This document shows, piece after piece, positions 5,713 through 53,041 of a DNA stretch of 59,911 nucleotides. A program made the translations under genes and the position numbers. The notes under the pieces were generated by a model. It saw nothing but the letters and a program-made list of their open reading frames with translations. It searched no databases and was not told the origin of the DNA. The stretch spans positions 1 through 59,911 of the forward strand of contig JAQTLZ010000005.1 in NCBI GenBank assembly GCA_028714635.1, written 5' to 3'. Origin of the DNA: Minisyncoccota bacterium. Lineage in GTDB: Bacteria > Patescibacteriota > Minisyncoccia > Phycocordibacterales > JAQTLZ01. Position 1 is the first letter of the stretch, and each line of letters starts with the position of its first letter.

Positions 5713-5720
5713 GTTTTTGA

Positions 5721-5803
5721 TTAGGGTTTAGGGTAAAGGGTTGAGGGTTTAGGATTTTGGTTTCAGTGTTTTCTATACCCTGTCCCCTTCACCCTCTACC
5801 CTA
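5721..5803 (-). repeat. heptad-periodic hairpin filling the rpsS-rplV spacer (TTAGGG-like arm plus complementary CCCT arm)
   Basis: GGG recurs every 7 nt at 5724, 5731, 5738 and 5745, with GG at 5752. The C-rich arm at 5775-5803 pairs in the same 7-nt register. Confidence 0.7.
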
Positions 5804-7113: not shown

Positions 7114-7134
7114 TGTCAAGGACAGTCCTTGACA
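7114..7134. repeat. REP-like 21-bp palindrome upstream of the RAYT gene
   Basis: TGTCAAGGACAGTCCTTGACA, identical to the copy at 7790-7810. Confidence 0.85.
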
Positions 7135-7789: not shown

Positions 7790-7810
7790 TGTCAAGGACA
7801 GTCCTTGACA
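7790..7810. repeat. REP-like 21-bp palindrome downstream of the RAYT gene
   Basis: TGTCAAGGACAGTCCTTGACA, identical to the copy at 7114-7134. Confidence 0.85.
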
Positions 7811-11731: not shown

Positions 11732-11736
11732 TTGAA

Positions 11737-11756
11737 TAGGGTTTAGGGTAAAGGGT
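11737..11756 (-). repeat. 20-nt TTAGGG-like tract in the tuf-rpsJ spacer, identical to 5722-5741
   Basis: tagggtttagggtaaagggt is identical at both loci. Each copy ends 6-10 nt upstream of a ribosomal-protein start codon. Confidence 0.7.
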
Positions 11757-11762
11757 GTAGGG

Positions 11763-13165: not shown

Positions 13166-16100
13166 CTAGAACCCTAAGAGATGCCCGAAGGATTCAAGAA
13201 CCGAAGCGACACTACTGGTAGTCGGAGCAACGGAAAGACTTGTCACATTGAAGACTGCTGTATTAGTAAATTGAGCAGTTCCTCCTATATAGACCTTGAT
13301 TACATACGAACCAATTGGGGCACCAGTGGGAACTTGGAATGTAACATTATTACCATTAACCGTACCAGTAACAGAACTATAATTTCCAAAATAGACTGTT
13401 CCATAAGGGAACGCCACCGGACCATTAATCGTAACCATTGTTCCTGGATGCCCTGACCCTGGTGAAATAGAACTGATTGAGGGCGTTGCTGGCGTGGTAA
13501 CAGGAGGAAAACTCTTTCTAATACCAACATTCCCTGAATTATCTATGGGATCAATCGAGAATGTATAGGTAACACCCGCTGTTAATCCCGTCACATTCAT
13601 GCTCCCGACAGGACCGCTAATCTGATTTCCATTAACACTACTGTTAGGCGAACTTGTTATCTGGTAGTTCACAGTACCTCCGGAATTATCGCTTGCTCCG
13701 CTCCAATTCAAGGTCAAACTATTTGATGTTACGTTGGAGGTGGTAAAGGTGGAAGAGCCCGACCAGACAGGAGCCGTTGTGTCTGCAGCGGGACCCACCG
13801 TAATATTGACATACTTGTATACACCATCAGCGCTGTGAATTGTCAGCATTCCACTGCCGGTAGCAGTTGGAGTGTAAGTTCTTGTTGCAGCACCTGCGGT
13901 TCCTCCGATAGTTCCTGAAACAGATGAGGTAAAGTAGTCGAAGGCAGGTTGTGGAGAAAGGGCGACGCCAGATGCATTTTTTGCAGTGAATGTATATGTG
14001 TATGTCGTATTTTGTGTGAGACTGGTTGATCCTGCTACGTCGATGGAGGCGGTGGTTGGACAACCCGTAGTCGTCGCCGTAACCGTCTTTGCAGGAGAGC
14101 TGACATTGCCAGCACCATCAGTGGCTGTGATCGAGAAAGTATACGTTGTACAAGCGGAGAGGCTTGCAACACCAGTCCCACTATTCGAAGCGCCATTAAA
14201 AGTAAGGGTACTGCCGGTACCGCTCGGAGAACGGGTGATGGTGTAACTTGCGACTCCACTACCACCAGTGTTGTCGGTTGCTCCGCTCCAATAAAGTGAG
14301 AGACTATTGTTGCCTATACCTGAAGCAGTAAAGCTTGTAGGAGAAGTGGGCGCAGTGACGTCGGCACCTCCACCTGTAGCATTCACCGTAATTGTTTTAG
14401 AATTACTGCTGTTCGTTCCACCAATAATAGAAACCGACAAACTATACGTGCCCGCTACAACTGCTGGAATGGTGTAGCTTAGAGACGTCCCGTTTGCTGA
14501 GGAAGCTTGAGTTTGGTAGGGCGTTCCGTTGGCAGTATTTACGAGGGTTATCAAGTTTGGGTGAGCCGCGTCAGTGGAAAAATTAGTACCGCTAATGACC
14601 GCAGGTGTCGCTACTCCCGCTGTTACCGATGTTGGGGAAACGGAAGTGATGGTTGGAGCTGAGGGCGTAGTGGTAATCGTCACCGTCTTCGAATCTGTAA
14701 CCGTTCCGTATGATCCGGTACACGTGATGGTGTATGTCTTTGATTGCGTGAGGAGACCTGTATAAATACCAGTAGAATTGTAAGTTGCACCTGATGTAAC
14801 CGATCCGTTCGCTGTAGTAAAGTTGGTTCCCGTACATGAAGTGACGTTGGAAGATGTCCAAGTGAGATACGTTCCATTTCCAGATGGCAGTGAACTTGCT
14901 GCGACGGTCAGGGTGACGGAAGGGGTTGGTGTACCGGTAGCATTCACCGTAATTGTTTTAGAATTACTGCTGTTCGTTCCACCAACAATAGAAACTGACA
15001 AACTATACGTGCCCGCTACAACTGCTGGAATGGTGTAGCTTAGAGACGTCCCGTTTGCTGAGGAAGCTTGAGTTTGGTAGGGCGTTCCGTTGGCAGTATT
15101 TACGAGGGTTATCAAGTTTGGGTGAGCCGCGTCAGTGGAAAAATTAGTACCGCTAATGACCGCAGGTGTCGCTACTCCCGCTGTTACCGATGTTGGGGAA
15201 ACGGAAGTGATGGTTGGAGCTGAGGTAGCGTTCACCGTAACAGTTGCAGTATCACTTTTACCGCCAGAAGAAGCTGTCACCGTTACCGTACGCGCAGTCC
15301 CCGGAGCTGTGAGAAGTCCTCCACTTGAAATAGTCCCCGCAGTCGTAGTCCAAGAATAGGCGGGTTGTGTAGATAACGCGTGGGTAAACTGGTCTAAGGC
15401 AGTTGCAGTAAATTGCTGGGTTCCGTTAACTGTGACACTAGCAGTTTCTGGAGTAACAGAGATAGAAGTAAAGACTTGAGCTGCGTTTGACACCGTAACT
15501 TCTTTTGTACCGATTATCGTTCCGGAATAAGCGCTCACTGTCACCGGAAGTGACGTGCCCGTTATACTTGAGGGAGCTCTAAAGAGACCGCTTGAGTTAA
15601 TTGTCCCCCCAGTCGCATACCAAGTGAACGAGGACGGCTGTGTGCGAAGATCATTATTTTTCTGATCTTTCGCAGTTGCGGTAAATTGTATTGTTCCATT
15701 TGTCCCAACAGTAAGGCTCGAAGAAGTTGTTAATTCGATAGAACTGAAAACGGGTGTGTAGGAACCGCCACTATGACCACCACTTCCACCGCCACCTCCG
15801 CCACCACTACCACCTCCCGAAGCTACACAAAGAGAACCACTTAATGGGCTGTATTTTGTTGTAAGCGTACAGCCAGCTGGGAGCGAAGCGAAACAACTTG
15901 CACCAGTTATATTATTGAACAACGCGCCCCCACTGCATGGACCAGTTCCTCCTCCCGGCAATGACACGCACGCAAAACCAGTCAGCGTGCTATAGCCTGA
16001 AGCGCTGGTACATCCTGGCGGGAAATTTCCTGAAACTGTTCCACCAGCTTCAAAGTCTCGAATCACTGCTTCTATGGTCAGAGGACCAAAGAGAGAAGTT

Positions 16101-16378
16101 ACGTGAACGAGGTAAAGGAGTTTTTTACCAATGAGAATAGTTTGGAGAGCCGGGACAGTAGTGACTCCGTACTTCTTCAATGTCAGAGCTTTGGTCAGAG
16201 GACCAAAAGGACCGACAACACCAGGAGGAAGAATGCTTGCTTGGTAAGCGTGAATTCTTGCATCCGAAACTGCCGCGTGTACTGGCAAAGCAAATGAAAA
16301 AGCGAGCGCGGCTAGCGCCAAAATTCCTCCTATTATTGCAACGATTCTTGCTGGATTAACAGCGTGTGAATGACTCAT
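13166..16378 (-). CDS. giant secreted surface protein with PG-binding-like N-domain, Cys loops, Gly linker, Ig-like (Big_2/IPT-like) and FN3-like modules; ends in VLESFGHLLGF
   Basis: Signal peptide ending VHA-AV. Repeated Ig/FN3-like sequence patterns (LSLYWSGATDN...YTFSITATD), an internal 96-aa duplicated module, and a conserved C-terminal tag. Confidence 0.85.
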   Translation of the reverse strand: MSHSHAVNPARIVAIIGGILALAALAFSFALPVHAAVSDARIHAYQASILPPGVVGPFGPLTKALTLKKYGVTTVPALQTILIGKKLLYLVHVTSLFGPLTIEAVIRDFEAGGTVSGNFPPGCTSASGYSTLTGFACVSLPGGGTGPCSGGALFNNITGASCFASLPAGCTLTTKYSPLSGSLCVASGGGSGGGGGGGSGGHSGGSYTPVFSSIELTTSSSLTVGTNGTIQFTATAKDQKNNDLRTQPSSFTWYATGGTINSSGLFRAPSSITGTSLPVTVSAYSGTIIGTKEVTVSNAAQVFTSISVTPETASVTVNGTQQFTATALDQFTHALSTQPAYSWTTTAGTISSGGLLTAPGTARTVTVTASSGGKSDTATVTVNATSAPTITSVSPTSVTAGVATPAVISGTNFSTDAAHPNLITLVNTANGTPYQTQASSANGTSLSYTIPAVVAGTYSLSVSIVGGTNSSNSKTITVNATGTPTPSVTLTVAASSLPSGNGTYLTWTSSNVTSCTGTNFTTANGSVTSGATYNSTGIYTGLLTQSKTYTITCTGSYGTVTDSKTVTITTTPSAPTITSVSPTSVTAGVATPAVISGTNFSTDAAHPNLITLVNTANGTPYQTQASSANGTSLSYTIPAVVAGTYSLSVSIIGGTNSSNSKTITVNATGGGADVTAPTSPTSFTASGIGNNSLSLYWSGATDNTGGSGVASYTITRSPSGTGSTLTFNGASNSGTGVASLSACTTYTFSITATDGAGNVSSPAKTVTATTTGCPTTASIDVAGSTSLTQNTTYTYTFTAKNASGVALSPQPAFDYFTSSVSGTIGGTAGAATRTYTPTATGSGMLTIHSADGVYKYVNITVGPAADTTAPVWSGSSTFTTSNVTSNSLTLNWSGASDNSGGTVNYQITSSPNSSVNGNQISGPVGSMNVTGLTAGVTYTFSIDPIDNSGNVGIRKSFPPVTTPATPSISSISPGSGHPGTMVTINGPVAFPYGTVYFGNYSSVTGTVNGNNVTFQVPTGAPIGSYVIKVYIGGTAQFTNTAVFNVTSLSVAPTTSSVASVLESFGHLLGF
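14376..14664 (-). repeat. 289-bp intragenic direct repeat, copy 1
   Basis: Identical to 14937-15225 except for two substitutions. Encodes the IPT-like module PTITSVSPTSVTAGVATPAVISGTNFS... Confidence 0.9.
14937..15225 (-). repeat. 289-bp intragenic direct repeat, copy 2
   Basis: Offset by 561 nt (187 codons) from copy 1, with 2 mismatches in 289. Confidence 0.9.
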
Positions 16379-16467
16379 AATAATTTTATGATTGTTAATA
16401 AAAAAAATACTCCTTTGCTTTAATAGTACCTCTTCAGAGACTTAAATGATAATCGGTTTTCCACAAG

Positions 16468-16496
16468 AAAAACCGCCTTATTTATTGGCGGTTTTT
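16468..16496 (-). terminator. intrinsic terminator after the 16526-19114 gene
   Basis: accgcc-ttatttatt-ggcggt stem with a T-run on the minus strand. Confidence 0.7.
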
Positions 16497-16525
16497 CTTG
16501 TTTCTAGCTATTACTGACACCCCAC

Positions 16526-19114
16526 CTATTGCAAAGTAACACGCACTAGAGGAGAGATAATGTCTCCAGCATTTGTCTGTATCCAGAGAGACCCAGCACC
16601 CTTTGGCCAAGTACTTGGTATGTTTACAGTGGTTGTTTTCGGTGCAGTACCGCTATTACTGAGCAGGAATAATTGATGGCTAATTCCGCCTAAATCTTGA
16701 TAAATACCCTTGATGTTACTGACACGAACATCATCGCAATATTTTACTTCATGATTTCCAACTGCCCACGTTGTATTTTGAGAAGGTGTGACAATACTCA
16801 ATACCCCAGATGTACACGCGTCTTGAGCAAGTACAGATATCGATGGCGTAGAACATGTGACTGTCTGACCGCCAGAGGTGACTTTTACTGACTCGGTGTA
16901 AGACCCCGGAGTGGTGTAGGTTATGTTGAATATATTATTATCTGTTGGAGATCTGTAAGAACCACTAAACAACCATTCGTAGGAATAAGATCCACTGCCC
17001 CCACTTGCAGTTGCTGTAAATGTAATTGACTGGGTCACTTTCGCACTCGAAGGTGTCGCAGAGACAGAGCAAGAGAGGGGTGTGCCACTACCTGCACTCG
17101 TAGTTGTCACTGTAACCGTCTTCTCTACACTGACATTGCCCGCCGCATCTTTAGCTGTAATTGTGAAAGTATATCTAGTTCCAGGAGAAAGACCCGTAAC
17201 ACCCGTACCGCTATAAGCACCGTTGGGAGTGAGGGTGCTACCGCTACCGCCTGGGTCACGAGTGATGGTGTAGCCTGTGACTCCCACATTATCGGTAGCA
17301 CCGCTCCATTGAAGCGAGAGACTATTGGCGCCAACACCATACGCAGTAAAGCTTGTGGGAGGAGTTGGTCGAGTGGTATCTGACCCGGCATTGATCGAGA
17401 ATGAATTGTTGCTTTCATCGCACACGTTACGATCTTCATCACATACTTTTACCTTGAACGATCCGCTCCAAGAGGAATTAATATTGAGCTTAGTGTAATT
17501 ATTTACATTAGGTTGATTCGTAACATTCCCCGCCACAGTTCTGGAAATAAGAGCTGAAGTGAATGCGTCTGCACCAGAAGAGTTAAGAAGATGAATCCTG
17601 ATATGGCTTGCGTCCAGATTCAGACCAAACAAGACAGGAATGATTCCATTTGAGGTTACGAAACGATCTCCCCCATTCGGACTAATGACCGTAATTGATT
17701 GGGTATCTCCCCCAGGAATCGTCAAAGTCCCGCTATTGCTCGTACCCTTGCTGTTAGTAACGGACACCGTATGATTTCCAGAAGAAGGAAGAGGAGAGAG
17801 AGTAAAGAGAAAACCCGCTGAACTCTGGAGAGAACCGGAAATCGGTGATCTACTGTCAAAATTGACTTTCGTGTCAGAAGTAAACCGAGAACCATTAATA
17901 TAATACATTCCGACTACTCCTGTTGTAGAGACAGAAGTTATGGAAGGAGGCAAATCAGTTGTTGATGATACAACATTTACTGTTATCGATTTCGTGAAGC
18001 TTGGATGAAGAGAGTCAGAAAGATTTATACAAGTGATGCTGTAGGTGTATGTCTGTCCTAGAGAAAGAGAAGACTTGGACTCACTCCCGGAAGCAAGACC
18101 GGACCCGCTCCAACTTCCAGATTTTGTACAAAGTGCTACCGGGTCTGTATGAACTGGATCATTTAATTTCCAAGCAAGCGTGACTGAATCAGTCGGCAAT
18201 ACTGAAATGGATGAGACAGCCTGGCCATTTGCGGTGAATGAGAGAGAGGCGGTGGAATTGCCTCCGTCACCCCCTGATATTACCGGAGGAGGAATATCTG
18301 CTGTCTGACTTGCTGGGAGACGAACTACGCGGATGGTATCGGCGAGTGTCACACCACTAGAGAGAGTAAATTTCACATTGTATACTCCAACCGCTGGGTA
18401 AGTGTGGCTTAAGACAAAGTTAGTCGCAGTTGTCTCTACAGTACTGTCTACATGAGATGTCTTCCCATCTCCCCAATTTATATCCACACCCGATTTTAAT
18501 GCAGTCTGTGTTCTTCCTTCAAGCTCCCATACTGCTACTTTGCCAGCTTGGGCGCTCCCTGGACGCTTGAAATCAACAAAGCATTCAGTAAGACCCGTAG
18601 AGTGACCAAGCCCCGTACTTGGCGGAGGACAGACTACGATCGCGCTGAAACGAAGGGACGAAGCAGCACCGCCATAAGGCAAAAGAGGATTGGTTCGTAC
18701 AAGAACGTGTGAAGACAAATCTTTTCCATTTGGAATCACCGGAACAGAAGGGGCGCTCGAAGAAGTTCCTGAAAAAGTCGGGGTAATCTTGTGCTGGCCA
18801 GGTTTTGTGTACTTATGAGTACGCGTAAAAACTTCTTTCCGGTCGGAAGATTGAGCCTGCAAAACTCCTTTTTCATCTGCCGTCCCCTGTTCACCCCAAT
18901 CTATGTTCCAAGAGACCGCCACACCCCCGGGGACAAGAAGCTCTAACGCAACTGTTTCAATCCCGTTTATAGGCAGAGCTCTTTGGCTCACGACATAAGG
19001 AACCGAAACGGAATTTGTTGCAGTGCCTACCGCTCCGGCAATACTCACAAAAGCGGAAAGGCCCAAGACAAGAAGGGATGCTCCTAATCCAAGAGTTGAT
19101 AGATATTTCTTCAT
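16526..19114 (-). CDS. giant secreted surface protein with PKD-like and FN3-like modules
   Basis: Signal peptide. PKD-like NIDWGEQG/INWGDGKTS...HTYPAVGVYNV motifs and an FN3 module (LSLQWSGATDNVGVTGYTITRDP). No C-terminal tag. Confidence 0.85.
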   Translation of the reverse strand: MKKYLSTLGLGASLLVLGLSAFVSIAGAVGTATNSVSVPYVVSQRALPINGIETVALELLVPGGVAVSWNIDWGEQGTADEKGVLQAQSSDRKEVFTRTHKYTKPGQHKITPTFSGTSSSAPSVPVIPNGKDLSSHVLVRTNPLLPYGGAASSLRFSAIVVCPPPSTGLGHSTGLTECFVDFKRPGSAQAGKVAVWELEGRTQTALKSGVDINWGDGKTSHVDSTVETTATNFVLSHTYPAVGVYNVKFTLSSGVTLADTIRVVRLPASQTADIPPPVISGGDGGNSTASLSFTANGQAVSSISVLPTDSVTLAWKLNDPVHTDPVALCTKSGSWSGSGLASGSESKSSLSLGQTYTYSITCINLSDSLHPSFTKSITVNVVSSTTDLPPSITSVSTTGVVGMYYINGSRFTSDTKVNFDSRSPISGSLQSSAGFLFTLSPLPSSGNHTVSVTNSKGTSNSGTLTIPGGDTQSITVISPNGGDRFVTSNGIIPVLFGLNLDASHIRIHLLNSSGADAFTSALISRTVAGNVTNQPNVNNYTKLNINSSWSGSFKVKVCDEDRNVCDESNNSFSINAGSDTTRPTPPTSFTAYGVGANSLSLQWSGATDNVGVTGYTITRDPGGSGSTLTPNGAYSGTGVTGLSPGTRYTFTITAKDAAGNVSVEKTVTVTTTSAGSGTPLSCSVSATPSSAKVTQSITFTATASGGSGSYSYEWLFSGSYRSPTDNNIFNITYTTPGSYTESVKVTSGGQTVTCSTPSISVLAQDACTSGVLSIVTPSQNTTWAVGNHEVKYCDDVRVSNIKGIYQDLGGISHQLFLLSNSGTAPKTTTVNIPSTWPKGAGSLWIQTNAGDIISPLVRVTLQ

Positions 19115-19199
19115 ACAAAAATGATACTTAGTAATAAATATGACTCAATACATTATATACATCCCTTATAAAAACGCATCCACAACCAAACCCCGGCGA

Positions 19200-22109
19200 T
19201 TAGAATCCCAATAAATGACCAAAAGCTTCGAGAATCGAGGCCGTCGCTTCCGCAAGATTTTTTTGATAGAAATAGGAGCTAGGACCGCTTACCATTCCTC
19301 CCCCACTATATGAAGGGAAAGTTGTAGTATAAGTCGAGACTGCGGAGTAGGTGGGAATCGCGGTCGCACTTGCTGCCGTAGTATGGGTAGGTGCTGCAGT
19401 CACAGTGGGCGGAATGGTTGAGGTTGCCCCGCCTCCGCTTGTGGAGAATGAAACAGAATCTGATGAGGGATTATTTGAAAGATCATAAACTAGTACGGTA
19501 AGAATATGCTCACCTGCAGAGCCCGGATTAAAAGAATAACTAAATGGCGCGGAAGTGTCGTTTCCGATAAAACTATCGTCAATGTAAAAGTCTGCTTTAG
19601 CCACTCCAACATTATCAGAAGCGCTAATAGAGACAGTCACTATTCCGGAGACAGTGGCGTCTGAAGCGGGATAAGTAATGGAAACAGTTGGAGGTGTTGT
19701 ATCTGGGACAGTTCCCGAAGTGGCTGTCGGAGCAGCTGTCGGAGCAGCCGTGGGTTGCGGTGTCGTAGTGGTTCTATTGGTGCCCGAACTTCCCCCTCCG
19801 CCACTGTGACGAATTGCGGTTGGAGCGGGATTAGAATATGAGTTATTTACATTCCCATTGGTAGCAGAATCGGGAACTGTGGTATTAGGATTGGAATATG
19901 AAGTTGAGGTGTTCGAAATTCCTGAACCGCAACTGCAGGCTTGAATCCCACCATCTCTACCAGGTTCCCCTTTACTACGACTGACAGGAGTAAATGCATA
20001 TCTGCCTTTACTGTCATACCCTTTTGTATAGCAATATATATTTTTCTTCTCGCAGTCATTATCCGGAGAACATTGCTTAGTAGGGATGTCTTTACAAAAA
20101 TCTGTTAGGCTTGGGTACGACCTATGCGCCCTATCCGCTTCAGGTTGCGTTGAGTTCTGGCCAAGATTCGAATATGTCATTATTTGATTCGAATCACACG
20201 GACTTGCTGTATATTTGGGTTTACAACTGGAAGGACCTTTGTTTGAATTTCCAGAACCTGAACCAGAACCAGGAGTTCCGTCTGTTCCACTTGAACCACC
20301 ATCAGCCGGCCCTCCAGTTGCTGGAGAATTATCAGCTGGTGGAGCGGTGTCTGCCGGAGTTGTATCGGCCGGAGGAGTGTCTGCGGGAGGACAGATAAAA
20401 GGTCCGATGGGTCCAAGAAGATCAGGCCAAATAGGCTCTATATGATTTTTGAAAAAGGGACATAAAAAACCTTGATCGGTTTCGTCCTCCAGTGTTGCAG
20501 GAGGTTCTTCCGCGGCAGGAGGAAACTTTCCGATATCATCTTTTGGAGTTTCAGGTTCCGGAGCAGAAGGTTCTTGTGCAGTCGCGTCATCGGGTGGCGC
20601 AGAAGTTCCATCATCTGGCGGGGCATCAGCGGATGGTTCATCTGTAGCTGGAGTATTATCATCAGGCGGTGGTGGCGGGACTTTATCTGGAGGAACATTC
20701 AGCGATGGAGGAGGAAACATCCCACTATTCCCCGGCTCTGTGATATCGGGAGGTTCTACGGGTTCTGGAAAATCATTAGGCGGAACACCCTGAAGGCCTG
20801 GGGGATTCTGAGCGGGCGGTGGTGGAGGTGAAATTGGCAGAGGCAGTATACTTGCTGGCGGGCAATATTGAAGAGGAGGATTGAGGAGAGGAATCCTGTA
20901 ACATCCTGGATCAGCGCTTACAACTGCATTACTAGTATCATCGCTCACGGGCTTCTCGATAACTGTCACAGAATCTTTCTCCTCATCAAAAGCTTCCGGC
21001 GCTTTCGCGCTGACTTTTATATTAGGAAAGTAGATACCAGGCTCCCCATAACTACAAGTAGGAAAACTAAAACTTGTTTCTGAAGTATCGATTGGCCCAT
21101 TTGTATCTCCATCACCACACGAGTAGGTCATTGTGTATGGTGGGTCTTGGTCAGTTACCCAAGTAGCAATGACGTACGACGGATCTCTCACAAAGATTTT
21201 GTCAGGAGTATGGGGATTCGCGACGAGAGTTACACTTAAAAAAGGTCCGCTAACAACAGTGACACCCGCTTTCCCTACAACTTTCCCACTTGTCGCAATC
21301 ACATCGCAATCTCCGACTTTATTACCGCTATAGTGCCCCTTTTCATCAATACCCACGCAAGTCCCAGAAGTCCATTTAATTGCAGGAATTAGCCCTGTAA
21401 ATTTTTGTCCATTTTGATCTTTAGGTTCAGCTGTGGCATCACCGCCTCCATTTAAAGCTATTTTGGGAGGATATGCAGCTACCTTAAGCGAGGAAAAAAC
21501 GGGTGTCCCCACAAATTCCCATTTTCCGTTGGCACCCTTTCTTAAATCTCCTTGATGGACACCTTTGTCGGGGAATTTATCATTTATAAGTCCAGATACG
21601 GTTGGTCCGTCAGTTTCACCTTTTCTAGTAATAGGATCGAAAGCCCCATTTCCCAAGAAATGAAAGCTGAAGCCCCCGTTTGGTGGAGAGCCATACAATG
21701 CAACTGATTTATTTAGTATCGTTATCTTATCTCTCGCATGACTATTTAAATATTGAAGCATCAAATCCTCGAATTTTTTCTCGTCAATGCATTCGTTTTT
21801 GTTTGGATCTGCTATTTTGACTTGTTTAGATGATCCATCCCATCCCATAATACAGACTTGCCCTTTTTCGGTAACTCTGTACCCCAACATCACTACGGTA
21901 TAGTCTGTACCTCCAACAGTAGTATATATAAATATGAGCGGCCCGAAGATATGCTGTTCTCCATTCGCGTCAATCAATATCTTGTCGAGTATATGATCTC
22001 CTGGTGCAAAGACTTGGGGAGGTAAAACGTCGGCTCGGGCAACTCCAGAGAAGGAAAGAAAAAAAACTAGCGAAAGAAATACTAGAGAAAAGATCCTTGT
22101 CTTTTGCAT
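19200..22109 (-). CDS. giant secreted surface protein with Pro-rich linker, Cys-rich region and Ig-like domain; ends in ILEAFGHLLGF
   Basis: Signal peptide ending ARA-DV. Roughly 200 aa of P/D/T-rich low complexity, an Ig-like TPPTVSITYPASDATVSG...DNVGV module, and the conserved C-terminal tag. Confidence 0.85.
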   Translation of the reverse strand: MQKTRIFSLVFLSLVFFLSFSGVARADVLPPQVFAPGDHILDKILIDANGEQHIFGPLIFIYTTVGGTDYTVVMLGYRVTEKGQVCIMGWDGSSKQVKIADPNKNECIDEKKFEDLMLQYLNSHARDKITILNKSVALYGSPPNGGFSFHFLGNGAFDPITRKGETDGPTVSGLINDKFPDKGVHQGDLRKGANGKWEFVGTPVFSSLKVAAYPPKIALNGGGDATAEPKDQNGQKFTGLIPAIKWTSGTCVGIDEKGHYSGNKVGDCDVIATSGKVVGKAGVTVVSGPFLSVTLVANPHTPDKIFVRDPSYVIATWVTDQDPPYTMTYSCGDGDTNGPIDTSETSFSFPTCSYGEPGIYFPNIKVSAKAPEAFDEEKDSVTVIEKPVSDDTSNAVVSADPGCYRIPLLNPPLQYCPPASILPLPISPPPPPAQNPPGLQGVPPNDFPEPVEPPDITEPGNSGMFPPPSLNVPPDKVPPPPPDDNTPATDEPSADAPPDDGTSAPPDDATAQEPSAPEPETPKDDIGKFPPAAEEPPATLEDETDQGFLCPFFKNHIEPIWPDLLGPIGPFICPPADTPPADTTPADTAPPADNSPATGGPADGGSSGTDGTPGSGSGSGNSNKGPSSCKPKYTASPCDSNQIMTYSNLGQNSTQPEADRAHRSYPSLTDFCKDIPTKQCSPDNDCEKKNIYCYTKGYDSKGRYAFTPVSRSKGEPGRDGGIQACSCGSGISNTSTSYSNPNTTVPDSATNGNVNNSYSNPAPTAIRHSGGGGSSGTNRTTTTPQPTAAPTAAPTATSGTVPDTTPPTVSITYPASDATVSGIVTVSISASDNVGVAKADFYIDDSFIGNDTSAPFSYSFNPGSAGEHILTVLVYDLSNNPSSDSVSFSTSGGGATSTIPPTVTAAPTHTTAASATAIPTYSAVSTYTTTFPSYSGGGMVSGPSSYFYQKNLAEATASILEAFGHLLGF

Positions 22110-35010: not shown

Positions 35011-35756
35011 TCTTTCATAATAGCTTGTTCGTCTTCAGCCGAGAGGGCTTTGCGAAATTTCGCTTTTTTGCCTTTTACTCGCTTTTCGCAGTCCGCCCAA
35101 GTCGAATGTTTGATAAGCACCCCATCGATAAGACTTAAGTATGAATAAGCTTTCGCGTTCGAATGAGCGCGCGAAGCGCTTTTTTCTTTTGCGAGAGATT
35201 TGTCGAGATCGAAATTCAAAATGTCTCTCCCGTATCCGGAAAGCACTCCGTTATAAAGCTTCGTCGGTCTTCCATCTGCAAAAGAAGTTGCGATCTCATC
35301 CGCGCGCTCGTTTCCGGCGATTCCCACATGGCCACCGAGATATTTCCATTCAATATTTTTGCCATCTATCGCATCAAGAAGTTTCTCCCACAAATCTCGA
35401 TTTTGCACATCTTCTTTTGTTTTTGTCTTCCAACCATTCGCTTCCCACGCCTTTGCCCATTTAGTTATGCCATTCAAAAGATAGCTTGAATCAGAGAACA
35501 GCGTAAAGCGTTTAGCGGCGAGCGGATAGGAAGAAAGAAACTTAAAAGCCTCTATTGCTCCGGTTAATTCCATCCTATTGTTTGTGATCTTTTTCTCACT
35601 GCCACCGATTTCAGTAACCCGCATTTCTGCTGAATTTGCATGCACGCCATCCGCTCCACGCTCGCCGCTAAACGCTATCACCGCTCCCCACCCGCCCGGC
35701 CCTGGATTTCCGCGAGAGGCCCCGTCGGTGAAAATAATTATTTCGTCCTTTTTCAT
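34995..35756 (-). CDS. rnhA: ribonuclease HI with C-terminal hybrid-binding-like domain
   Basis: IFTDGASRGNPGPGGWG...NNRMEL...SDS...HVGIAGNERADE catalytic pattern. C-terminal YSYLSLIDG...W...V.G...FRK resembles an RNase H1 HBD. Start set at MKKDEIII. Confidence 0.85.
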   Translation of the reverse strand: MKKDEIIIFTDGASRGNPGPGGWGAVIAFSGERGADGVHANSAEMRVTEIGGSEKKITNNRMELTGAIEAFKFLSSYPLAAKRFTLFSDSSYLLNGITKWAKAWEANGWKTKTKEDVQNRDLWEKLLDAIDGKNIEWKYLGGHVGIAGNERADEIATSFADGRPTKLYNGVLSGYGRDILNFDLDKSLAKEKSASRAHSNAKAYSYLSLIDGVLIKHSTWADCEKRVKGKKAKFRKALSAEDEQAIMKEWGVK

Positions 35757-44490: not shown

Positions 44491-45609
44491 TCAAGCTTTT
44501 TCTAAAGCTTGAATGCCCGGCAAAGTCTCATTTGCAAGGAATTCAAGCATCGCTCCGCCCCCCGTCGAGACGAAAGAAAATTTATCAAAAAGATCGAGCT
44601 CTCGGATTGCCGCCAAAGTATCTCCCCCGCCAACAATCGCTTCCACCCCGCTTTTCACAATCGCTTTCGCGAGAACGAACGTCGGCTCCTTGAAACCTTC
44701 TTCATATTGACCGAGCGGACCATTCCAAAGAATGAACTTTGCTTCTTTGATTTTCTTTTCCAAAATTTCATCTGTCTTCGGTCCAGCGTCCGTCATTTTT
44801 TCCTCTTTTGAAACCGCGTCAGGCGCTTCCACAGAAATTTTTCCCGCATTCTCCACCGTCACATCCTCCGGCAAGATGAGTTTTGGATTCTGAAGTATCG
44901 AAGAAAAATCAATCTTTTCTTCCGAAACCAAAGACTTCCCCGTCTCGTATCCTTCCGCTTTGAAAAGATCGTTCGCAAGTGCACCTCCGATGAACACTGT
45001 ATCAGCGAGTTTTAGAAATTTCTCTACAAGAGGCAATTTGGTTGAGAATTTTGCTCCAGCAAGAATGAAAAGAAATGGATGCGGAGGGTTGAAAGCTCTC
45101 GAAAGATTTTGTACTTCTTCTTCCAAAAGAAGTCCGGCGAACGAAGGAAGATATTTTGGCACTCCGACGATAGATGCGTGGGCGCGATGAGAAGCGGAAA
45201 ACGCTTCGTTCACATAGATTTCTCCGAACTCTGACAAGTCTTTTGCAAATTTTTCGTCATTTGTTGTTTCACCTTCATATCTCCTCACATTCTCTAACAA
45301 AAGAAAATCTCCTTCAGAGAGATTATTATAAATATCTTTTGCTGATTGATCGTAAATATCTTGCGCGAATGAAATTGAGAAAGTTTTTTTCAAATATTCA
45401 AAAACGGGGAGAAGCGTTTTCTCGGTGCTTTCAATGTGACTCATAAGCACAACTTTTGCTCCTTCTTTTTGCAAATACAAAAGAAGCGACAATGTTCTCT
45501 CTATTCGATAATCATCCGTAATACTATTCCCAGAAACAGGAACATTGAAGTCGCACCGGACCAAAACTTTTTTTCCTTTTAGCTGTCCGGCTTCTCGAAT
45601 AGACTTCAT
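44491..45609 (-). CDS. pgk: phosphoglycerate kinase
   Basis: VLVRCDFNVP, SHRAHAS and GGGDT motifs. True start is MKSIREAG at 45609; the MPFFTNR extension comes from a repeat element. Confidence 0.95.
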   Translation of the reverse strand: MKSIREAGQLKGKKVLVRCDFNVPVSGNSITDDYRIERTLSLLLYLQKEGAKVVLMSHIESTEKTLLPVFEYLKKTFSISFAQDIYDQSAKDIYNNLSEGDFLLLENVRRYEGETTNDEKFAKDLSEFGEIYVNEAFSASHRAHASIVGVPKYLPSFAGLLLEEEVQNLSRAFNPPHPFLFILAGAKFSTKLPLVEKFLKLADTVFIGGALANDLFKAEGYETGKSLVSEEKIDFSSILQNPKLILPEDVTVENAGKISVEAPDAVSKEEKMTDAGPKTDEILEKKIKEAKFILWNGPLGQYEEGFKEPTFVLAKAIVKSGVEAIVGGGDTLAAIRELDLFDKFSFVSTGGGAMLEFLANETLPGIQALEKA

Positions 45610-45739
45610 CCTGTTAGTGAAAAATGGCATCGCTCTTTGGAGCGGCTATGCCATTCTCATTATTTACCGCTGTTAAATTCAACCGTTTCATATTTTTGAA
45701 TATTTTATGATTTGCTCCAATGCCATTTTCTACTACGGG
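45610..45739 (-). mobile_element. hairpin-ended element copy B (130 bp, no ORF), abutting the ATG of pgk
   Basis: The terminal ~26 nt on each side are near-identical to copy A. Flanked by a 7-bp direct repeat ACTTCAT (45603-45609 and 45740-45746), which is ATGAAGT on the gene strand. Confidence 0.8.
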
Positions 45740-45749
45740 ACTTCATTGA

Positions 45750-46514
45750 TTATTTGGATGCATTAGCAACTTTTAAAATCGTACCGAAATTTTTGGGGTT
45801 GAGAGATTCTCGTCCAACCAAAAGCCCGTCTACTTCTCCTGCGAGAAGGAGAAGCTCCACATTTTCTGTATTCACCGTGCCTCCGTAAATAACAGGAATT
45901 TTAACAACAGCGCTCGGGCCAAAAAATTCTGAAAGGACTTTCCGAATATAAATTTTCATTTGGTGGAGGTCTCTCGGTAAAATTGCATTCTCCGCTCCGA
46001 TCGCCCACACAGGTTCATATGCAATAAGCATATTTGGCAAAGCTTTTTTCGAAACGCCTTGTAATCCTAAATGAATTTGACTCTTCACGAATTCGAGAAA
46101 ATGCCCGTCGTGGCCGCGTTCTTTTTCTCCAACACAGAAAATCACTTTAAGCCCAGCGCCCAAACTCGCGAGAATCTTTTTATTAATTAGATCGTCTGTC
46201 TCGCCGGCATTTCTCCTTTCGGAGTGACCGATAATGATATATTCCGCACCGGTATTTTTAATCATAAGAGGAGAGAGAAAACCCGTATATGAACCGCTCG
46301 ATTCAAAAGAAGAAGTATCCTGAGCGCCCAAAACAATATCGCTTCGGGAAGACTTTGCGACAAGGTCGGAAAGATAGAGAACGGGAGGACAAATTACTGT
46401 GTTTACTTTTTTACACTCGGAGGCAATTTTTTTTATTTTCGAGAAAATCGCCCGAGCTTCAGGAAGAGTCTCTGGGTTCATTTTCCAGTTGCCGATAACA
46501 ATTTTTTTCGCCAT
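45750..46514 (-). CDS. tpiA: triosephosphate isomerase
   Basis: GNWKMN, GHSERR, AYEPVWAIG and YGG motifs. Start set at MAKKIVIGNWKMN; a start at 46523 is also possible. Confidence 0.93.
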   Translation of the reverse strand: MAKKIVIGNWKMNPETLPEARAIFSKIKKIASECKKVNTVICPPVLYLSDLVAKSSRSDIVLGAQDTSSFESSGSYTGFLSPLMIKNTGAEYIIIGHSERRNAGETDDLINKKILASLGAGLKVIFCVGEKERGHDGHFLEFVKSQIHLGLQGVSKKALPNMLIAYEPVWAIGAENAILPRDLHQMKIYIRKVLSEFFGPSAVVKIPVIYGGTVNTENVELLLLAGEVDGLLVGRESLNPKNFGTILKVANASK

Positions 46515-46545
46515 AACGTTCATTGTAGCACGTCTGGACAAAGAG

Positions 46546-47988
46546 CTAAATCTCGCGCCATTTTTTAATTTTCCAAGTCCCCCCGGGCCCAGAAGTAAAC
46601 AAAGTTTGGGCAAGTCCGATAGAATAGATAACTTCGGTGTTGTTAATAAGAGTAAGTTTGTAAGCGGTCACCTCGCGTAGCGCTACGTTATTTTCGAGCT
46701 TGATCTGGCCATGTGAAGCATACGTCAAGAGATTTCCAGCAGCGCCGTTTACAAAATCCATTGCCAGAACAGAACCGCCTTGTTCCGCGCTCTTATTCAT
46801 TGAAATAAGCATTACGTATGAATCCGCATTTCCTGTCGAACCGTAAAAATTCGAATTCCCAGTGGCAACAATTTTGCTGGATGTAGTCTGCGCAGAGGGA
46901 TTGTCAGCGATAACAGGAACACTCTTATCTCCAACTGGATCAGCTACTTTCATCTGCACTCCTGTTCCCCCGGTACCACTGATTGTGATGTTCCCTGTGA
47001 CCCACACTGCTCCAGCGACTATAACCGTCGTACCATTTCCACTTATGGTCAAATCGCAAGGAATCTTTTTCGGTCCTATAGTCACATTTGAGGTTATCGT
47101 ATAGCTTCCATTTGTGCAGGTTGCGGTTCCCCCGGCTGCCGCGTCGCTCTCCCATTGGCTTATGAGACTGTCGGGAATTGGAAAATCTATAAGTGGTTGG
47201 TCGGCACTTCCCGGATGAGTTGTCCCAGAAATAGTTGAATTCGTAAAAGTTGAAGCATAATAAGCGCTTCCGCCAATAGTCGTGTGATCAATCGAATGAG
47301 CATAAAGACTCGAACTTGCGTGGACGTCGCTTATAAAACCAGAGGGGCCAGCCGAAACTGCAGAACCTTCAATAAAATTATAGCTGTTGGGATTGCTACT
47401 CCCGCCCTGAATAATACCGTTCGAATATACATTGCCGAGGACAAGAGAACCGTTATTCATATAAAGCCCTCCAACACCAGTCTGTACGCCGAAATTAAAA
47501 GAGAAACCATCTGTAACCGTAATATCTTTCACGACTGTTCGAATATAATTAGAAGCATTACCGCTTGCGGTAATTTCCTCTTCGTTTATGCCCGTTGTTG
47601 CAAGTGTGACCGTGGTTGTCGCTGTGCCAAGTACCAGCGTTTCCGGAAACGACGTCGTAAGATTATTTTTAATTCTATAGTACGCATCCTCACTTCCCGC
47701 TTCTGCGGCAAAATAACTCTGCCGAGATAAATGTAGTCCCACTACAATGCGGATTTGGCGGATAACAGGGGTGGTGACGCCAAGCACAATCACCAAGGCG
47801 ATGAGCATAAAAAATATCACGGCAACCATAACCGCTTGCCCGCGCACCAAGTTTGATTTTTTATAATTCTTCCGAGAAAAAAGTTCTGAAAAATATCCGT
47901 AATTCTTTTTCAAAGCTGGCAAGATAAAACTTGGTGCATGGGCTTGCCCGCGCTTTCTCGATATTTTTTTGTAATTGTATAACTTCAT
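46546..47988 (-). CDS. pilus-associated large protein with PilX_N-like anchor
   Basis: N-terminal RGQAVMVAVIFFMLIALVIVLG resembles a PilX N-terminal segment. Gly/Ser/Thr-rich beta-rich body. Last gene of the pilin gene run. Confidence 0.55.
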   Translation of the reverse strand: MKLYNYKKISRKRGQAHAPSFILPALKKNYGYFSELFSRKNYKKSNLVRGQAVMVAVIFFMLIALVIVLGVTTPVIRQIRIVVGLHLSRQSYFAAEAGSEDAYYRIKNNLTTSFPETLVLGTATTTVTLATTGINEEEITASGNASNYIRTVVKDITVTDGFSFNFGVQTGVGGLYMNNGSLVLGNVYSNGIIQGGSSNPNSYNFIEGSAVSAGPSGFISDVHASSSLYAHSIDHTTIGGSAYYASTFTNSTISGTTHPGSADQPLIDFPIPDSLISQWESDAAAGGTATCTNGSYTITSNVTIGPKKIPCDLTISGNGTTVIVAGAVWVTGNITISGTGGTGVQMKVADPVGDKSVPVIADNPSAQTTSSKIVATGNSNFYGSTGNADSYVMLISMNKSAEQGGSVLAMDFVNGAAGNLLTYASHGQIKLENNVALREVTAYKLTLINNTEVIYSIGLAQTLFTSGPGGTWKIKKWREI

Positions 47989-50756: not shown

Positions 50757-52514
50757 CTATTCAGACACAACTCTCAAAACTTCCTCGATCGTGGTAACTC
50801 CCTGCACTGCTTTAAAAATGCCGTCTTCGATCATCGTAAGCATTCCTTCTTTCTTCGCCTGATCTTCGATATCTTTCGCGGAAGCTCTCTTCATAACTAA
50901 ATCTTTTATGGAAGCAGAAATTTTAAGCACCTCGTGGATACCAACTCTTCCTTTATAACCATCTTCGGAATCCGTGGAAGGTTTCGCTCTGAAAAAAGGT
51001 ATTTTGTCCCAGGTGGCGGTCTTTGCCACAATTTTTTCTTCCCGAAGAATATCAAGCACGTGATTCATATCCACCTCCTTTGAAATGTCCGCGAATTCAG
51101 CCTTGCTTAAAAAATACTGATCTTTCTTGTCGCACAGTTTTCGGATGAGTCTCTGTCCAATGACGACATTCAATGTCGAAACCAAAAGGAACGGCTCGCA
51201 TTTCATATCAAGTAGTCTCGGAATCGCGCCAGCAGCAGAGTTAGTGTGAAGTGTTGAAAGCACCAAGTGTCCAGTCAGAGATGCGTTAATCGCCAAGCCA
51301 GCTGTCTCGTTGTCTCGAATTTCTCCCACCATCACAATGTCCGGATCTTGTCGGAGAAGGGAGCGGAGCCCGTTTGCAAAACTGAAACCAATCTCCGGCT
51401 TCACCTGCGTTTGATTGACGCGGGGCATTTGATATTCGATCGGGTCTTCGATAGTGGAAATATTTACTGAAGCAGTATTCAAAATATCAAGCACAGTATA
51501 AAGAGTCGTCGTTTTTCCAGAACCAGTCGGGCCGGCGCAGAGAATCATTCCGGTGCGCTGTTTGGTGCCTGAATGAATTCTTTCCAGCCCCTCCCCATGA
51601 AAACCGAGCTTCTCCAAAGTAAAACCGGACTTCCCTTCTTTCAAAAGTCGCATCACAATTTTCTCTCCGAAATAGGTCGGTAACACAGAAACGCGAAAAG
51701 AAACTTTCTCGGCATTGGCCTCAACTTTAAAACGTCCGTCCTGCGGGAGTCTTTTTTCGTCGAGTTTCAAATTCGAAAGCACTTTGATGCGGGCGACGAT
51801 ACCGAGAGCAGAGTTCCGAGGAAGAACCATCGCGTCATGAAGAATTCCGTCAATGCGATAACGCACTAAAACTTCAGTTTCGAGTGGTTCAATATGAATA
51901 TCGGATGCGTTTTGGATGATGGCGTGCTTGAGAAGGGTCTCGACGATCCTCACGATAGGAAGATCCTCTGCCATTTTTTTCAAATCGCTTTCTGTTGCGC
52001 CTGCCCCCTTGTCATCTGAAGGTGTGTAGGTTTGAATTGCTTCCGCTTCTTTTTGAATAATGTCGCCGAATTCCGCTTTCAAACTTTTCTGATACTGGAG
52101 AAGCGCGGATTTCATACTCTCAACATCGGTCAGCCGAGGCAAAATTTTAAGTCCGAGTTTCTTTTTTATAAAATCAATAACGGGAAGATCATCGGTATCG
52201 AGCATCACCACTTGGAGAGAGTCGCCATTTTTCTCAAACGCGAGAATATTATGATTTCGGGCAATCGGTTCCGGAATAAGCGAAAGGACGTCGCTCTCGA
52301 TTTTGAGACCCTTGAGATCAACAAAAGGAATACCCATCATATAGGCTTGCACCCTTCTCCAATCATCATCGTTCAATTTCCCGGTCTTTATGAGCGCCTT
52401 GCTTATCGGAATTTTATCCGCAATGGCTTCTTCCTCTACCTTTTCGAAATCAGCTCGAGAAACAAGGCCCGAGTCGAGAATGAATTCTTTCAATTGTTTC
52501 TCATCAATGTGCAT
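50757..52514 (-). CDS. pilB: type IV pilus assembly ATPase PilB (GspE family)
   Basis: T2SSE N-domain, Walker A GPTGSGKTTT, Asp box, and MVGEIRD / LTGHLVLSTLHTN motifs. Confidence 0.95.
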   Translation of the reverse strand: MHIDEKQLKEFILDSGLVSRADFEKVEEEAIADKIPISKALIKTGKLNDDDWRRVQAYMMGIPFVDLKGLKIESDVLSLIPEPIARNHNILAFEKNGDSLQVVMLDTDDLPVIDFIKKKLGLKILPRLTDVESMKSALLQYQKSLKAEFGDIIQKEAEAIQTYTPSDDKGAGATESDLKKMAEDLPIVRIVETLLKHAIIQNASDIHIEPLETEVLVRYRIDGILHDAMVLPRNSALGIVARIKVLSNLKLDEKRLPQDGRFKVEANAEKVSFRVSVLPTYFGEKIVMRLLKEGKSGFTLEKLGFHGEGLERIHSGTKQRTGMILCAGPTGSGKTTTLYTVLDILNTASVNISTIEDPIEYQMPRVNQTQVKPEIGFSFANGLRSLLRQDPDIVMVGEIRDNETAGLAINASLTGHLVLSTLHTNSAAGAIPRLLDMKCEPFLLVSTLNVVIGQRLIRKLCDKKDQYFLSKAEFADISKEVDMNHVLDILREEKIVAKTATWDKIPFFRAKPSTDSEDGYKGRVGIHEVLKISASIKDLVMKRASAKDIEDQAKKEGMLTMIEDGIFKAVQGVTTIEEVLRVVSE

Positions 52515-52823
52515 CCCGTAGTGAAATTTTAGTCTGTTAAATTTTTCTTGTACAAATATTCTTTGACTCTCCGTTTTAATAACCTACCACCTTGTGTTGT
52601 CTTTAAATATCGCTCTCTGCGAAAAGCGTCATCTTTATCGATACAAGCTTCGTAATAAACACATTTCCACGGCCGATATCGTTTTGTAGAAAAATTTAAC
52701 CCTTGATTATGTTCTTCTAATCGTTTTCTCAAATCTGCTGTAAAACCAATATACCATTGTGCATTTTTCAAACTTTCGATTACATAAGTGTAGAACATAA
52801 TCGGACTAAAATTCTACTACAGG
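52515..52823 (-). mobile_element. hairpin-ended element copy C (309 bp) carrying a GIY-YIG ORF, abutting the ATG of pilB
   Basis: Arms cccgtagtgaaattttagtc (52515-52534) and gactaaaattctactacagg (52804-52823). Flanked by tgcat at 52510-52514 and 52825-52829. Confidence 0.75.
52529..52798 (-). CDS. GIY-YIG nuclease domain-only protein (89 aa)
   Basis: FYTYVIES...QWYIGFTADLRKRLEEHN pattern. The ORF lies inside a 309-bp hairpin-ended element and its TAA stop lies within the element arm. Confidence 0.85.
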   Translation of the reverse strand: MFYTYVIESLKNAQWYIGFTADLRKRLEEHNQGLNFSTKRYRPWKCVYYEACIDKDDAFRRERYLKTTQGGRLLKRRVKEYLYKKNLTD

Positions 52824-52907
52824 ATGCATGATTACGATTTTCCTTCTCTTTAGTATACCAAAAATAGAGAGACCCGTTTTCACCGTTCTGTGTACAAAAT
52901 AGGCAAA

Positions 52908-52973
52908 CCCCGTAGTGAAAAACAGCATCGATTTTCCTGCACATTTTGTGCAATGCTGTTTTCTACTACAGGG
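52908..52973 (-). mobile_element. hairpin-ended element copy E (66 bp solo hairpin)
   Basis: Arms ccccgtagtgaaaaacagcat and atgctgttttctactacaggg with a 24-nt loop. Same outer consensus as copies A-C, with a compensated inner stem. Confidence 0.65.
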
Positions 52974-53041
52974 CAAATAAAAAGGCGGAAAGAACAACAC
53001 GTGTCCAAACCGCCCTTAACAACAAAGAAACTCCATGCACC

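Follow-up and report, generated by a model that had tools for sequence, protein, structure and literature searches.

The closest described relatives of the system reported here are the Ssn proteins, single-domain GIY-YIG nucleases of ~94 aa that bind NTS/SRM hairpin repeats only as single-stranded DNA (ssDNA), not as double-stranded DNA (dsDNA), and that cut beside the hairpin repeat on one strand only, in a strand-directional manner (Chenal et al. 2025, Nat Commun; PMC11893778). Ssn genes are often bracketed by such repeats, an architecture that the authors call "identical to" that of insertion sequences (IS), and in Neisseria NTS/SsnA has been proposed to modulate transformation or recombination; past or present mobility was raised only as a question (PMC11893778). 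The portions of that paper drawn on here report no target duplication, empty sites, start-codon targeting, translational capture, or occurrence in Patescibacteria (PMC11893778). We describe a family of very small elements from Patescibacteria, starting from a 59,911-nt stretch of a Minisyncoccota genome (contig JAQTLZ010000005.1 of GCA_028714635.1, positions 1 to 59,911; here, the window). The window is cellular DNA, with glycolysis, type IV pilus, and peptidase genes whose best protein matches are metagenome-assembled genomes of Patescibacteria, or the candidate phyla radiation (CPR). It contains five copies of one element, A to E, all on the minus strand, and the palindrome at 45610-45739 that drew attention to the locus is copy B.

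On balance we favor the view that this is a hairpin-ended mobile element whose stem, formed in ssDNA, is the substrate of the element's own nuclease, the nuclease being translated by capture of a host start codon. Copy B would be a nonautonomous member of the family, akin to what is termed a MITE, a miniature transposable element with inverted repeats. Its ends, complementary across 21 positions, would pair in single-stranded DNA or in an extruded cruciform. Of these positions, the outer 12 are conserved in sequence, with an obligatory A.C plus G.T tandem at positions 9-10 and no constraint at position 3; positions 13-20 require complementarity alone. The resulting asymmetric stem is predicted to be recognized by the ~89-aa GIY-YIG nuclease, a relative of the Ssn hairpin-specific ssDNA nucleases, which would cut at or near the stem foot. 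As GIY-YIG enzymes are hydrolytic, rejoining would need host ligation or repair. The nuclease gene, in turn, would be translated via the original host ATG, either by way of a leader open reading frame (ORF) of 3-8 codons that stops shortly before the nuclease ATG or by fusion in frame.

Read on the minus strand, copy B runs T-CCCGTAGTAGAAAATGGCAT...ATGCCATTTTTCACTAACAGG-A. On the plus strand the arms are CCGGTTAG...CTACGGG in A, CCTGTTAG...CTACGGG in B, CCCGTAG...CTACAGG in C and E, and CCCGTTAG...CTAACGGG in D; the third arm base varies and in many cases lacks a partner, and one arm of A and of B contains an additional, bulged T (CCNGTTAG). The original prediction, made from the window alone, took the outer arms to be constant, CCCGTAG facing CTACGGG. 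No copy has both, and variation at position 3 together with the bulge in A and B leaves the literal pattern CCCGTAG...CTACGGG with 0 matches in the window. The similarity of A and B was likewise thought to be confined to their ends, whereas the two align over their full length. The inner stems are as first described (ATGGCAT/ATGCCAT in A and B, ACAGCAT/ATGCTGT in E, TTTTAGTC/GACTAAAA in C, and AGAGATA/TATCTCT in D), as is the asymmetry of GTAGTAGAA opposite TTCACTAC, one A.C plus one G.T, which is present in A, B, C, and E and not in D; the stem of D is a perfect 14-bp TCCCGTTAGAGATA without mismatch. The stem in the window runs one base pair further outward than had been described, as T-A or C-G.

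That the palindrome is not a random one was also borne out. The motif CCCGTAGTAG, allowing up to one mismatch, occurs 6 times in the window against 1.05 expected, and on folding as single-stranded DNA the termini pair in every copy (z-scores of -7.9/-6.9 in E and between -2.6 and -3.6 in A and B). Shuffles, folds, and the 68 + 57 related copies described below rule out a chance palindrome.

Evidence of selection on pairing comes from related elements in other genomes. Relatives of the C protein, gathered in one scan of 185,579 species genomes, gave 80 loci (L001-L080), and in about 60 of these the gene lies between CCNGT(T)AG, ~25 nt upstream of the ATG, and CT(A)ACNGG, 14-24 nt past the stop; several loci also have gene-less copies of 55-138 nt close to the gene. 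Pair counts were made on 68 such elements of other Patescibacteria genomes, all free of bulges and oriented by their asymmetry, and in these the ends pair as a stem of 21 bp. Position 0 is C-G in 37 and T-A in 29, positions 1-2 are invariant C-G, and position 3 is mostly unpaired (C.A 27, T.G 9, Watson-Crick 28). Positions 4-8 are invariant, with position 8 being T-A in 61 and A-T in 7; position 9 is A.C and position 10 is G.T in all 68, and positions 11-15 are nearly invariant, apart from a few compensated changes. By contrast, positions 16-19 each show 3-4 Watson-Crick types and are paired in 67-68 of the 68, position 20 is paired in 48, and pairing ends beyond it. The formal count, on 63 distinct rows, finds 12 of the 21 stem pairs changed on both sides, in 179 cells altogether; the paired fraction of cells is 91.4%, compared to 79.6 ± 0.5% in shuffles and 27-51% with a slid partner column, and the covariation score is 0.351 against 0.117. 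None of 500 shuffles reached the observed value on any measure. Covariation in a larger alignment, which the original prediction had called for, is thus strong, and the mismatch it had singled out is invariant.

What the inner stem responds to is informative. Positions 16-19 differ among elements whose proteins are 70-80% identical, yet they are complementary within each element, arguing that selection acts on pairing itself rather than on one sequence recognized at both ends. Duplex sites that go unread would be expected to diverge, and the matching arms of one element therefore point to a hairpin rather than ordinary inverted repeats. Nor is the inner stem matched to the resident nuclease gene, as MITE stems differ from that of the full-length copy nearby, both in the window (A, B, and E versus C) and in loci L011, L015, and L059. 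Were one arm regenerated by copying its partner, neither the A.C/G.T tandem nor the mismatches at position 3 should survive; that both are retained argues against such copying. A metagenome scan for the A/B-type arm returned at least 120 gene-less stretches. Among the matches listed are 57 complete copies of 65-147 nt, and in all 57 the partner of the GTAGTAGAA arm is a TTCACTAC arm, even though a perfect complement of the GTAGTAGAA arm would have satisfied the search pattern too.

Relative to the gene, the AG/GA asymmetry is found one way round in 45 elements and the other way round in 24, and neighbors in the protein tree differ in it, so it is not a coding or expression feature. Coding constraint was considered as its source and rejected, no frame-specific reason being found and both orientations occurring. 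By analogy to the strand-directionality of NTS, the tandem could be a mark that tells the hairpins of the two strands apart. Rfam families gave 0 matches at the gathering score across the whole window on both strands and no tRNA turned up, so that a known RNA family or tRNA was dropped as a candidate. Of the protein-recognized, selected hairpin that was first proposed, the selected pairing stands, with covariation and an invariant mismatch behind it; recognition by a protein is suggested by analogy, and as far as sequence goes the selected form could be DNA or RNA. The hairpin interpretation is supported but was partial, in that the hairpin consists of the two termini of a transposable element.

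To define the element boundaries, we compared two models on 126 elements, CCN...NGG (model 0) and Y-CCN...NGG-R (model 1). Under model 1, with ends Y-CCNGTAG...CTACNGG-R, an abutting direct repeat of 4 bp is found in 84 of the 126, of 5 bp in 11, and of 3 bp in 8, and the terminal pair is T-A in 81 and C-G in 42. The CCN...NGG boundary with a duplication of 5-7 bp was discarded, as few elements show abutting repeats under it and L099, L024, and L046 fit model 1 only. The commonest duplications are TGAA, TGGA, TATG, TTCA (TGAA in the reverse orientation), and ATGA. These overlap the host start codon, as A|TGNA in T/A-ended elements and as TATG or ATGA in C/G-ended ones. In the former, the terminal A and the duplicated TGNA rebuild ATGNA; in the latter, the whole ATG is inside the duplication. 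The overlap means that the host ATG is regenerated downstream of the element. In copy B, the original A of the pgk start codon, with the tpiA stop TAA 3 nt further upstream, precedes the upstream TGAAG, and the pgk ATG has been rebuilt from the terminal A of the element (45609) and the downstream TGAAG.

Empty sites are present in close relatives. In a Ca. Pacebacteria genome (GCA_028711065.1, locus L081), phosphoglycerate kinase (PGK) is 87% identical and the gene order is the same as in the window; there the tpiA-pgk site is empty, an uninterrupted tpiA-TAA-tta-ATGAAG junction, and so is the T2SSE start site orthologous to that of copy C, which reads through without interruption as ...ATCATGCACATTGATGAG. 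A second relative, L083, is also empty at the tpiA-pgk junction, and insertion B is present in a 98%-identical strain (L085). The family has features typical of an IS-like element: a 21-bp terminal inverted repeat (TIR), a 4-bp target duplication, and empty orthologous sites, two in L081 and one in L083. The GIY-YIG protein is the only ORF; no transposase of a recognized class (DDE, DEDD, HUH, serine or tyrosine recombinase) is encoded. In a database of 1.84 billion, where representatives stand for 50% identity clusters, the A1 profile retrieved 19,755 representatives at E <= 1e-3 and 4,411 at E <= 1e-10, and a D-type query retrieved 3,922 clusters at E <= 1e-10. Two scans of IMG/VR viral contigs returned no full-length type-I elements. 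A full-length partner with the ATGGCAT inner stem was not found, the 80 metagenome loci holding one divergent GIY-YIG gene without recognizable ends. Separately, tandem elements lie exactly 6 nt apart, as in ...CTACCGG-actaat-CCCGTAG... (L049 2298-2365, L057 1910-1980, L058 1838-1975, L070 1904-1980, and L129), with a MITE directly before a full-length copy, an arrangement that recalls BIME-like clustering or insertion beside an existing end.

Association with start codons is apparent in two sets of elements, neither of which was chosen by its flanking sequence. Of 61 full-length elements, 49 have an ATG at a distance of 0-2 nt from their 3' end, and four more have a GTG. Nonredundant metagenomic MITEs, among the matches listed, have a start codon at 52 of 53; the ATG is on the TTCACTAC-arm side in 46, the arrangement is mirrored in 6, and 1 has neither. 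The mirrored MITEs have CAT on both sides, meaning that the host gene is on the other strand. Among the 52 MITE-adjacent ATGs, again from the matches listed, there are 46 whose ORF is 80 aa or longer or runs off the contig. As a crude baseline, the window has 59 intergenic ATGNA sites compared to ~21 at gene starts, from which a bare preference for ATGNA together with loss of intragenic insertions would predict only about a quarter of insertions at starts. Copy E is the sole copy in the window that is off a start codon.

The sequences around the insertion sites give a hint that many targets are leaderless genes, in which the ATG coincides with the transcription start, and that promoter-bubble targeting may be possible; copies A and B are clearly operon-internal. 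Of 90 insertion sites, 38 have a -10-like (TATAAT-like) hexamer in the 16 nt that precede the original ATG, compared to 82 of 540 first ATGs of long ORFs from the same loci, a baseline whose starts were crudely assigned. Many of the host starts with an insertion have such a hexamer at 5-9 nt upstream and lack a Shine-Dalgarno (SD) motif (in L086-L165, in the flanks of L001-L080, and at 31508-31530 of the window), and SD-like motifs are rare at insertion sites and baseline ATGs alike.

The layout of the full-length copies suggests how the nuclease would be expressed. In copy C, the leader ORF opens at the original host ATG and continues into the 5' arm, and the nuclease gene, which has no SD sequence of its own, ends in a TAA 14 nt before the host ATG. 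More generally, the nuclease ATG has the consensus context GATTATG without an SD-like motif upstream, and in 16 of 20 class-1 elements an M-x-PVV(E/D/K)F-stop ORF runs from the original host ATG and ends 7 nt before the nuclease ATG. Other registers give other short ORFs, MTP-stop in -5 and MPRSRISx-stop in -4, the latter ending 2 nt before the nuclease ATG or overlapping it; in three cases there is instead an in-frame fusion to the nuclease. At the far end, the nuclease ORF finishes 14-24 nt before the regenerated host ATG or, in 7 cases including D, its TGA overlaps that codon as ATGA. The D-type architecture is also found in locus L208, with the same layout and an upstream ATG in frame that gives a 95-aa product. 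Some proteins carry an element-type GIY-YIG domain together with long N- or C-terminal sequence (P0448, 600 aa; P0466, 655 aa; P0361, 214 aa with two matched stretches), possibly through read-through with host genes or as gene-calling artifacts at insertion sites.

Gene-less copies A and B have an internal ATG (ATGCCAT) after GGGAG/AAGAG. The bulged base brings its distance to 21 nt and thereby into the frame of the host gene (MPFFTNR-M...). A 379-aa PGK call in a close strain arose where the gene caller used this internal ATG of the element. The extra T/A at this place in the arm (CCNGT-T-AG, a stem bulge) is recurrent, being found at 28555-28562 and 45610-45617 in the window, in L032, L057, and L079, and in 11 of 53 metagenomic MITEs among the matches listed; in MITEs it sets the internal ATGCCAT in frame with the host ATG.

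Comparison of the nuclease to characterized proteins places it near Ssn. PF01541 is its sole domain, at 86-89 aa, with Y3/Y5, Y16, R26, H30, and E50 invariant in 27 homologues, and the C protein has hundreds of 60-80% identical relatives, nearly all in Patescibacteria. As Ssn references we used two SRM-flanked genes, from Rhizobium and Azospirillum, recovered from plasmids by tblastn and an SRM regular expression. These score 50.1 and 47.0 bits against the A1 (CPR) profile, compared to 37.8 (BH0048), 30.6 (EF2693), and 23.7 (YhbQ) for UPF0213 proteins, with Slx1 proteins also below the Ssn references, and hhalign gives the Ssn comparison a probability of 98%. Among NCBIfam models there is no match above cut-off, TIGR01453 scoring 20-23 bits against a cut-off of 56. 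The likeness extends to architecture: a ~90-aa single-domain GIY-YIG protein, hairpin-capable inverted repeats around the gene, scattered gene-less repeats, and a directionality built into the repeat. The two differ in that the ~30-nt Ssn repeat is a hairpin of its own, whereas the hairpin of the element is built from both of its ends, the gene lying in the loop. No palindrome is present within a single arm, and the stem joins ends 12 to ~270 nt apart. The SRM consensus HGTCWYN(0-2)YYVSBRHN(0-5)WNVSBRGN(0-2)RNCYNB matches nowhere in the window or in 310 kb of L001-L080, compared to 2 and 4 matches in the positive controls L206 and L207, and the Ssn C-terminal motif W.R.WK..LIE..NP.W.DL is absent from the element proteins. 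We take the element to be a sister variant with a probably Ssn-like mode of action, not a demonstrated member of that family (cd10448). In one of the reference plasmids (L207, Azospirillum lipoferum AZO_p3, 255118-256115), the SRM-flanked Ssn gene separates sufB from sufC and has a pair of inverted SRM copies to either side, operon-internal like the CPR elements.

Other hairpin-bearing and gene-adjacent elements share parts of this picture. IS200/IS605 and REP/RAYT systems have imperfect hairpins with conserved irregularities that are read as structure, abundant short nonautonomous repeats, and a short preferred target, and the element resembles them in its conserved irregularities, gene-less hairpin repeats, and short target. 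It differs in that the IS200/IS605 enzyme is an HUH Y1 protein with a covalent tyrosine intermediate, not a hydrolytic GIY-YIG enzyme, and in that IS200/IS605 has a subterminal hairpin at each end and no duplication, while the ends of the element pair with each other and are flanked by a 4-bp duplication; a domain search found no HUH protein in the window. Bacterial MITEs such as the Neisseria Correia elements, ERIC, RUP, and the Rickettsia palindromic elements are TIR-bounded, gene-less stretches of 60-150 nt with short target duplications that insert beside or within genes, are cotranscribed, and fold as long hairpins. They derive from DDE-type IS elements or have no known enzyme, whereas full-length partners have been identified here, and we know of no report that any of them targets start codons or has a GIY-YIG partner. 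GIY-YIG homing endonucleases (I-TevI and the T4 Seg proteins) similarly place the domain on a selfish element between or before host genes. They are, however, longer than 200 aa with a separate DNA-binding domain, compared to one domain in 89 aa, lack TIRs, MITEs, and target duplication, and spread by homologous repair at one cognate site, unlike the element, whose insertions precede unrelated genes and whose protein falls short of the TIGR01453 cut-off.

Several points weigh against the hairpin-ended element as we have framed it. The fixed 4-bp duplication is the classic sign of a staggered cut in a double-stranded target, and the best-known ssDNA hairpin transposons, IS200/IS605, leave none. 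A GIY-YIG nuclease forms no covalent intermediate, so strand joining is not explained by the nuclease alone, and with arms ~270 nt apart in full-length copies, pairing demands that much DNA be single-stranded. The pairing constraint does not cover the whole stem, as position 3 shows no covariation (C.A in 27 of 68); the asymmetry is found in both orientations with repeated flips, which a simple strand-specific model must accommodate; the SRM motif of Ssn is absent; and the choice of real start codons over other ATGNA sites is left unaccounted for.

A conventional double-stranded cut-and-paste transposon, whose arms are TIRs bound as duplex by one protein and in which no hairpin forms, is the strongest competitor, although we judge it unlikely. 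Cut-and-paste elements classically have TIRs, a target duplication of fixed length (4 bp here), empty sites, and MITE derivatives, and position 3, a pyrimidine in both arms read 5' to 3' rather than a covarying pair, resembles sequence read-out arm by arm. The difficulty is at positions 16-19, which vary, even between MITE and full-length copy in the same genome, yet are ~99% complementary within an element: if unread they should drift, and if read they should match the resident protein, which disfavors duplex recognition. Furthermore, the 89 aa of the protein make up a single catalytic domain and leave no DNA-binding module, the element encodes no transposase of a known class, and the closest characterized relatives of the protein, the Ssn proteins, do not bind dsDNA (PMC11893778).

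Selection on pairing could instead act mainly on RNA: the element would be cotranscribed with the host gene, and its stem would loop the insert out of the host mRNA so that the original initiation signals meet the regenerated AUG, or would stabilize the transcript. Split ribosome-binding sites of this kind are reportedly known from phage T4 genes 38 and 25. Insertion is always in the transcribed 5' end of a gene, with the duplicated AUGs at the two stem feet; G.U is a normal RNA pair; and MITEs at essential genes such as pgk must permit translation, A and B having an in-frame ATG after GGGAG/AAGAG. That RNA is the main basis of selection nevertheless seems a poor prospect, as the stem is kept off start codons (E and elements in L011, L015, and L032) and in both transcription orientations, position 3 on the sense strand is mostly C.A and not U.G, ribosomes on the nuclease ORF would melt the stem around a 270-nt loop in full-length copies, and the invariant A.C is unexplained. 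An RNA role of the stem is compatible with a DNA role, and the two may coexist. We regard as highly improbable a domesticated, immobile Ssn-like host system in which the repeats are genomic marks that modulate transformation or recombination, as proposed for NTS/SsnA: Ssn homology and many dispersed repeats per genome (5 in 60 kb) would suit it, but presence and absence differ at identical sites between close relatives, with target duplications, there are several nuclease genes per genome, each within its own repeat pair (C and D), and the gene is parasitic on host start codons.

Taking the hairpin-ended mobile element as the preferred reading, we rate as an even question whether the family represents an unrecognized class of prokaryotic transposable element, with a single-domain, Ssn-like GIY-YIG protein only, ends read as an asymmetric hairpin, integration at start codons (many in apparently leaderless genes) with a 4-bp duplication that rebuilds the ATG, a translation hijack, and at least hundreds of MITEs across Patescibacteria. 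The combination of features is not described in the literature searched, and we class the element as a variant among Ssn/hairpin-repeat systems. Because target duplications, empty sites, and MITE offspring are all seen in this family, the question of Ssn mobility becomes testable. If the reading is true, a hydrolytic GIY-YIG nuclease would join the enzymes that drive insertion sequences, in an element that combines structure with a fixed non-Watson-Crick tandem to define its ends. Precise insertion on start codons, rebuilding of the ATG, and translational capture would together be an unusual parasitic life that does not kill genes, in extremely compact genomes. Gene calls in CPR genomes are affected, through spurious N-terminal extensions such as the 379-aa PGK and through "GIY-YIG" fusions of 95-130 aa, and the natural series of matched hairpin/nuclease pairs could extend the ssDNA-cutting toolbox proposed for Ssn.

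Table 1. Element copies, target-site duplications, and associated genes in the window
Feature	Position	Strand	Description
Copy A	28554-28687	minus	134 nt, no ORF, ATGGCAT subfamily like B
Copy A target duplication	28550-28553 and 28688-28691		TGAA; copy A abuts the ATG of ORF 27919-28554
GIY-YIG gene of D	31226-31486	minus	86 aa, 48% identical to C
Copy D	31229-31507	minus	279 nt, full-length, 86-aa GIY-YIG ORF, second divergent clade
Copy D target duplication	31225-31228 and 31508-31511		TGAA; abuts the ATG of glutamine amidotransferase gene 30654-31229
pgk	44491-45609	minus	Phosphoglycerate kinase
Downstream copy of B target duplication	45604-45608	minus	TGAAG
Copy B	45609-45740	minus	132 nt, no ORF (MITE-like), between tpiA and pgk
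Upstream copy of B target duplication	45741-45745	minus	TGAAG; original pgk start-codon A precedes
tpiA	45750-46613	minus	Triosephosphate isomerase
Copy C	52514-52824	minus	311 nt, full-length, 89-aa GIY-YIG ORF
Copy C target duplication	52510-52513 and 52825-52828		TGCA; abuts the ATG of T2SSE/PilB-like gene 50757-52514
GIY-YIG gene of C	52529-52798	minus	89 aa, single domain, PF01541 E = 9.6e-18
Leader ORF of C	52806-52829	minus	Seven codons, MHPVVEF-stop; stops 7 nt before the GIY-YIG ATG
Copy E	52908-52973	minus	66 nt, little beyond the hairpin, inner stem ACAGCAT, gene-less
Copy E target duplication	52904-52907 and 52974-52977		TTTG; C-G termini

The window has further repeats and palindromes. 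Three very large minus-strand ORFs (1070, 862, and 969 aa) at 13166-22109 have internal repeats, among them a 293-nt direct repeat of 99% identity (14372-14664 and 14933-15225) and blocks of 70-87 nt common to the first two ORFs. A perfect 21-nt palindrome, TGTCAAGGACAGTCCTTGACA, which contains TTGACA, is found at 7114-7134 and 7790-7810, on either side of an ORF at 7145-7774, and may be an operator or promoter or the ends of another small cassette. A second repeat, unrelated to the element, has short blocks GATAGCGTTTAGCGG.GAGCGT and CCGC..ACGCTTTACGCTGTT at 26069-26151 and 35497-35679, inverted and ~9.5 kb apart. A perfect 21-nt inverted repeat with a 1-nt loop (AACCAAAGAAAAAGCCACCCA / TGGGTGGCTTTTTCTTTGGTT) at 656-698 is partly within the 3' end of a minus-strand ORF (715-2154) and may be a bidirectional terminator. 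Finally, a G-tract motif, TTTGAWTAGGGTTTAGGGTAAAGGGT..AGGGTT, is present at two intergenic sites, 5716-5770 and 11731-11764, with 91% identity, and its four GGG runs make it quadruplex-capable.

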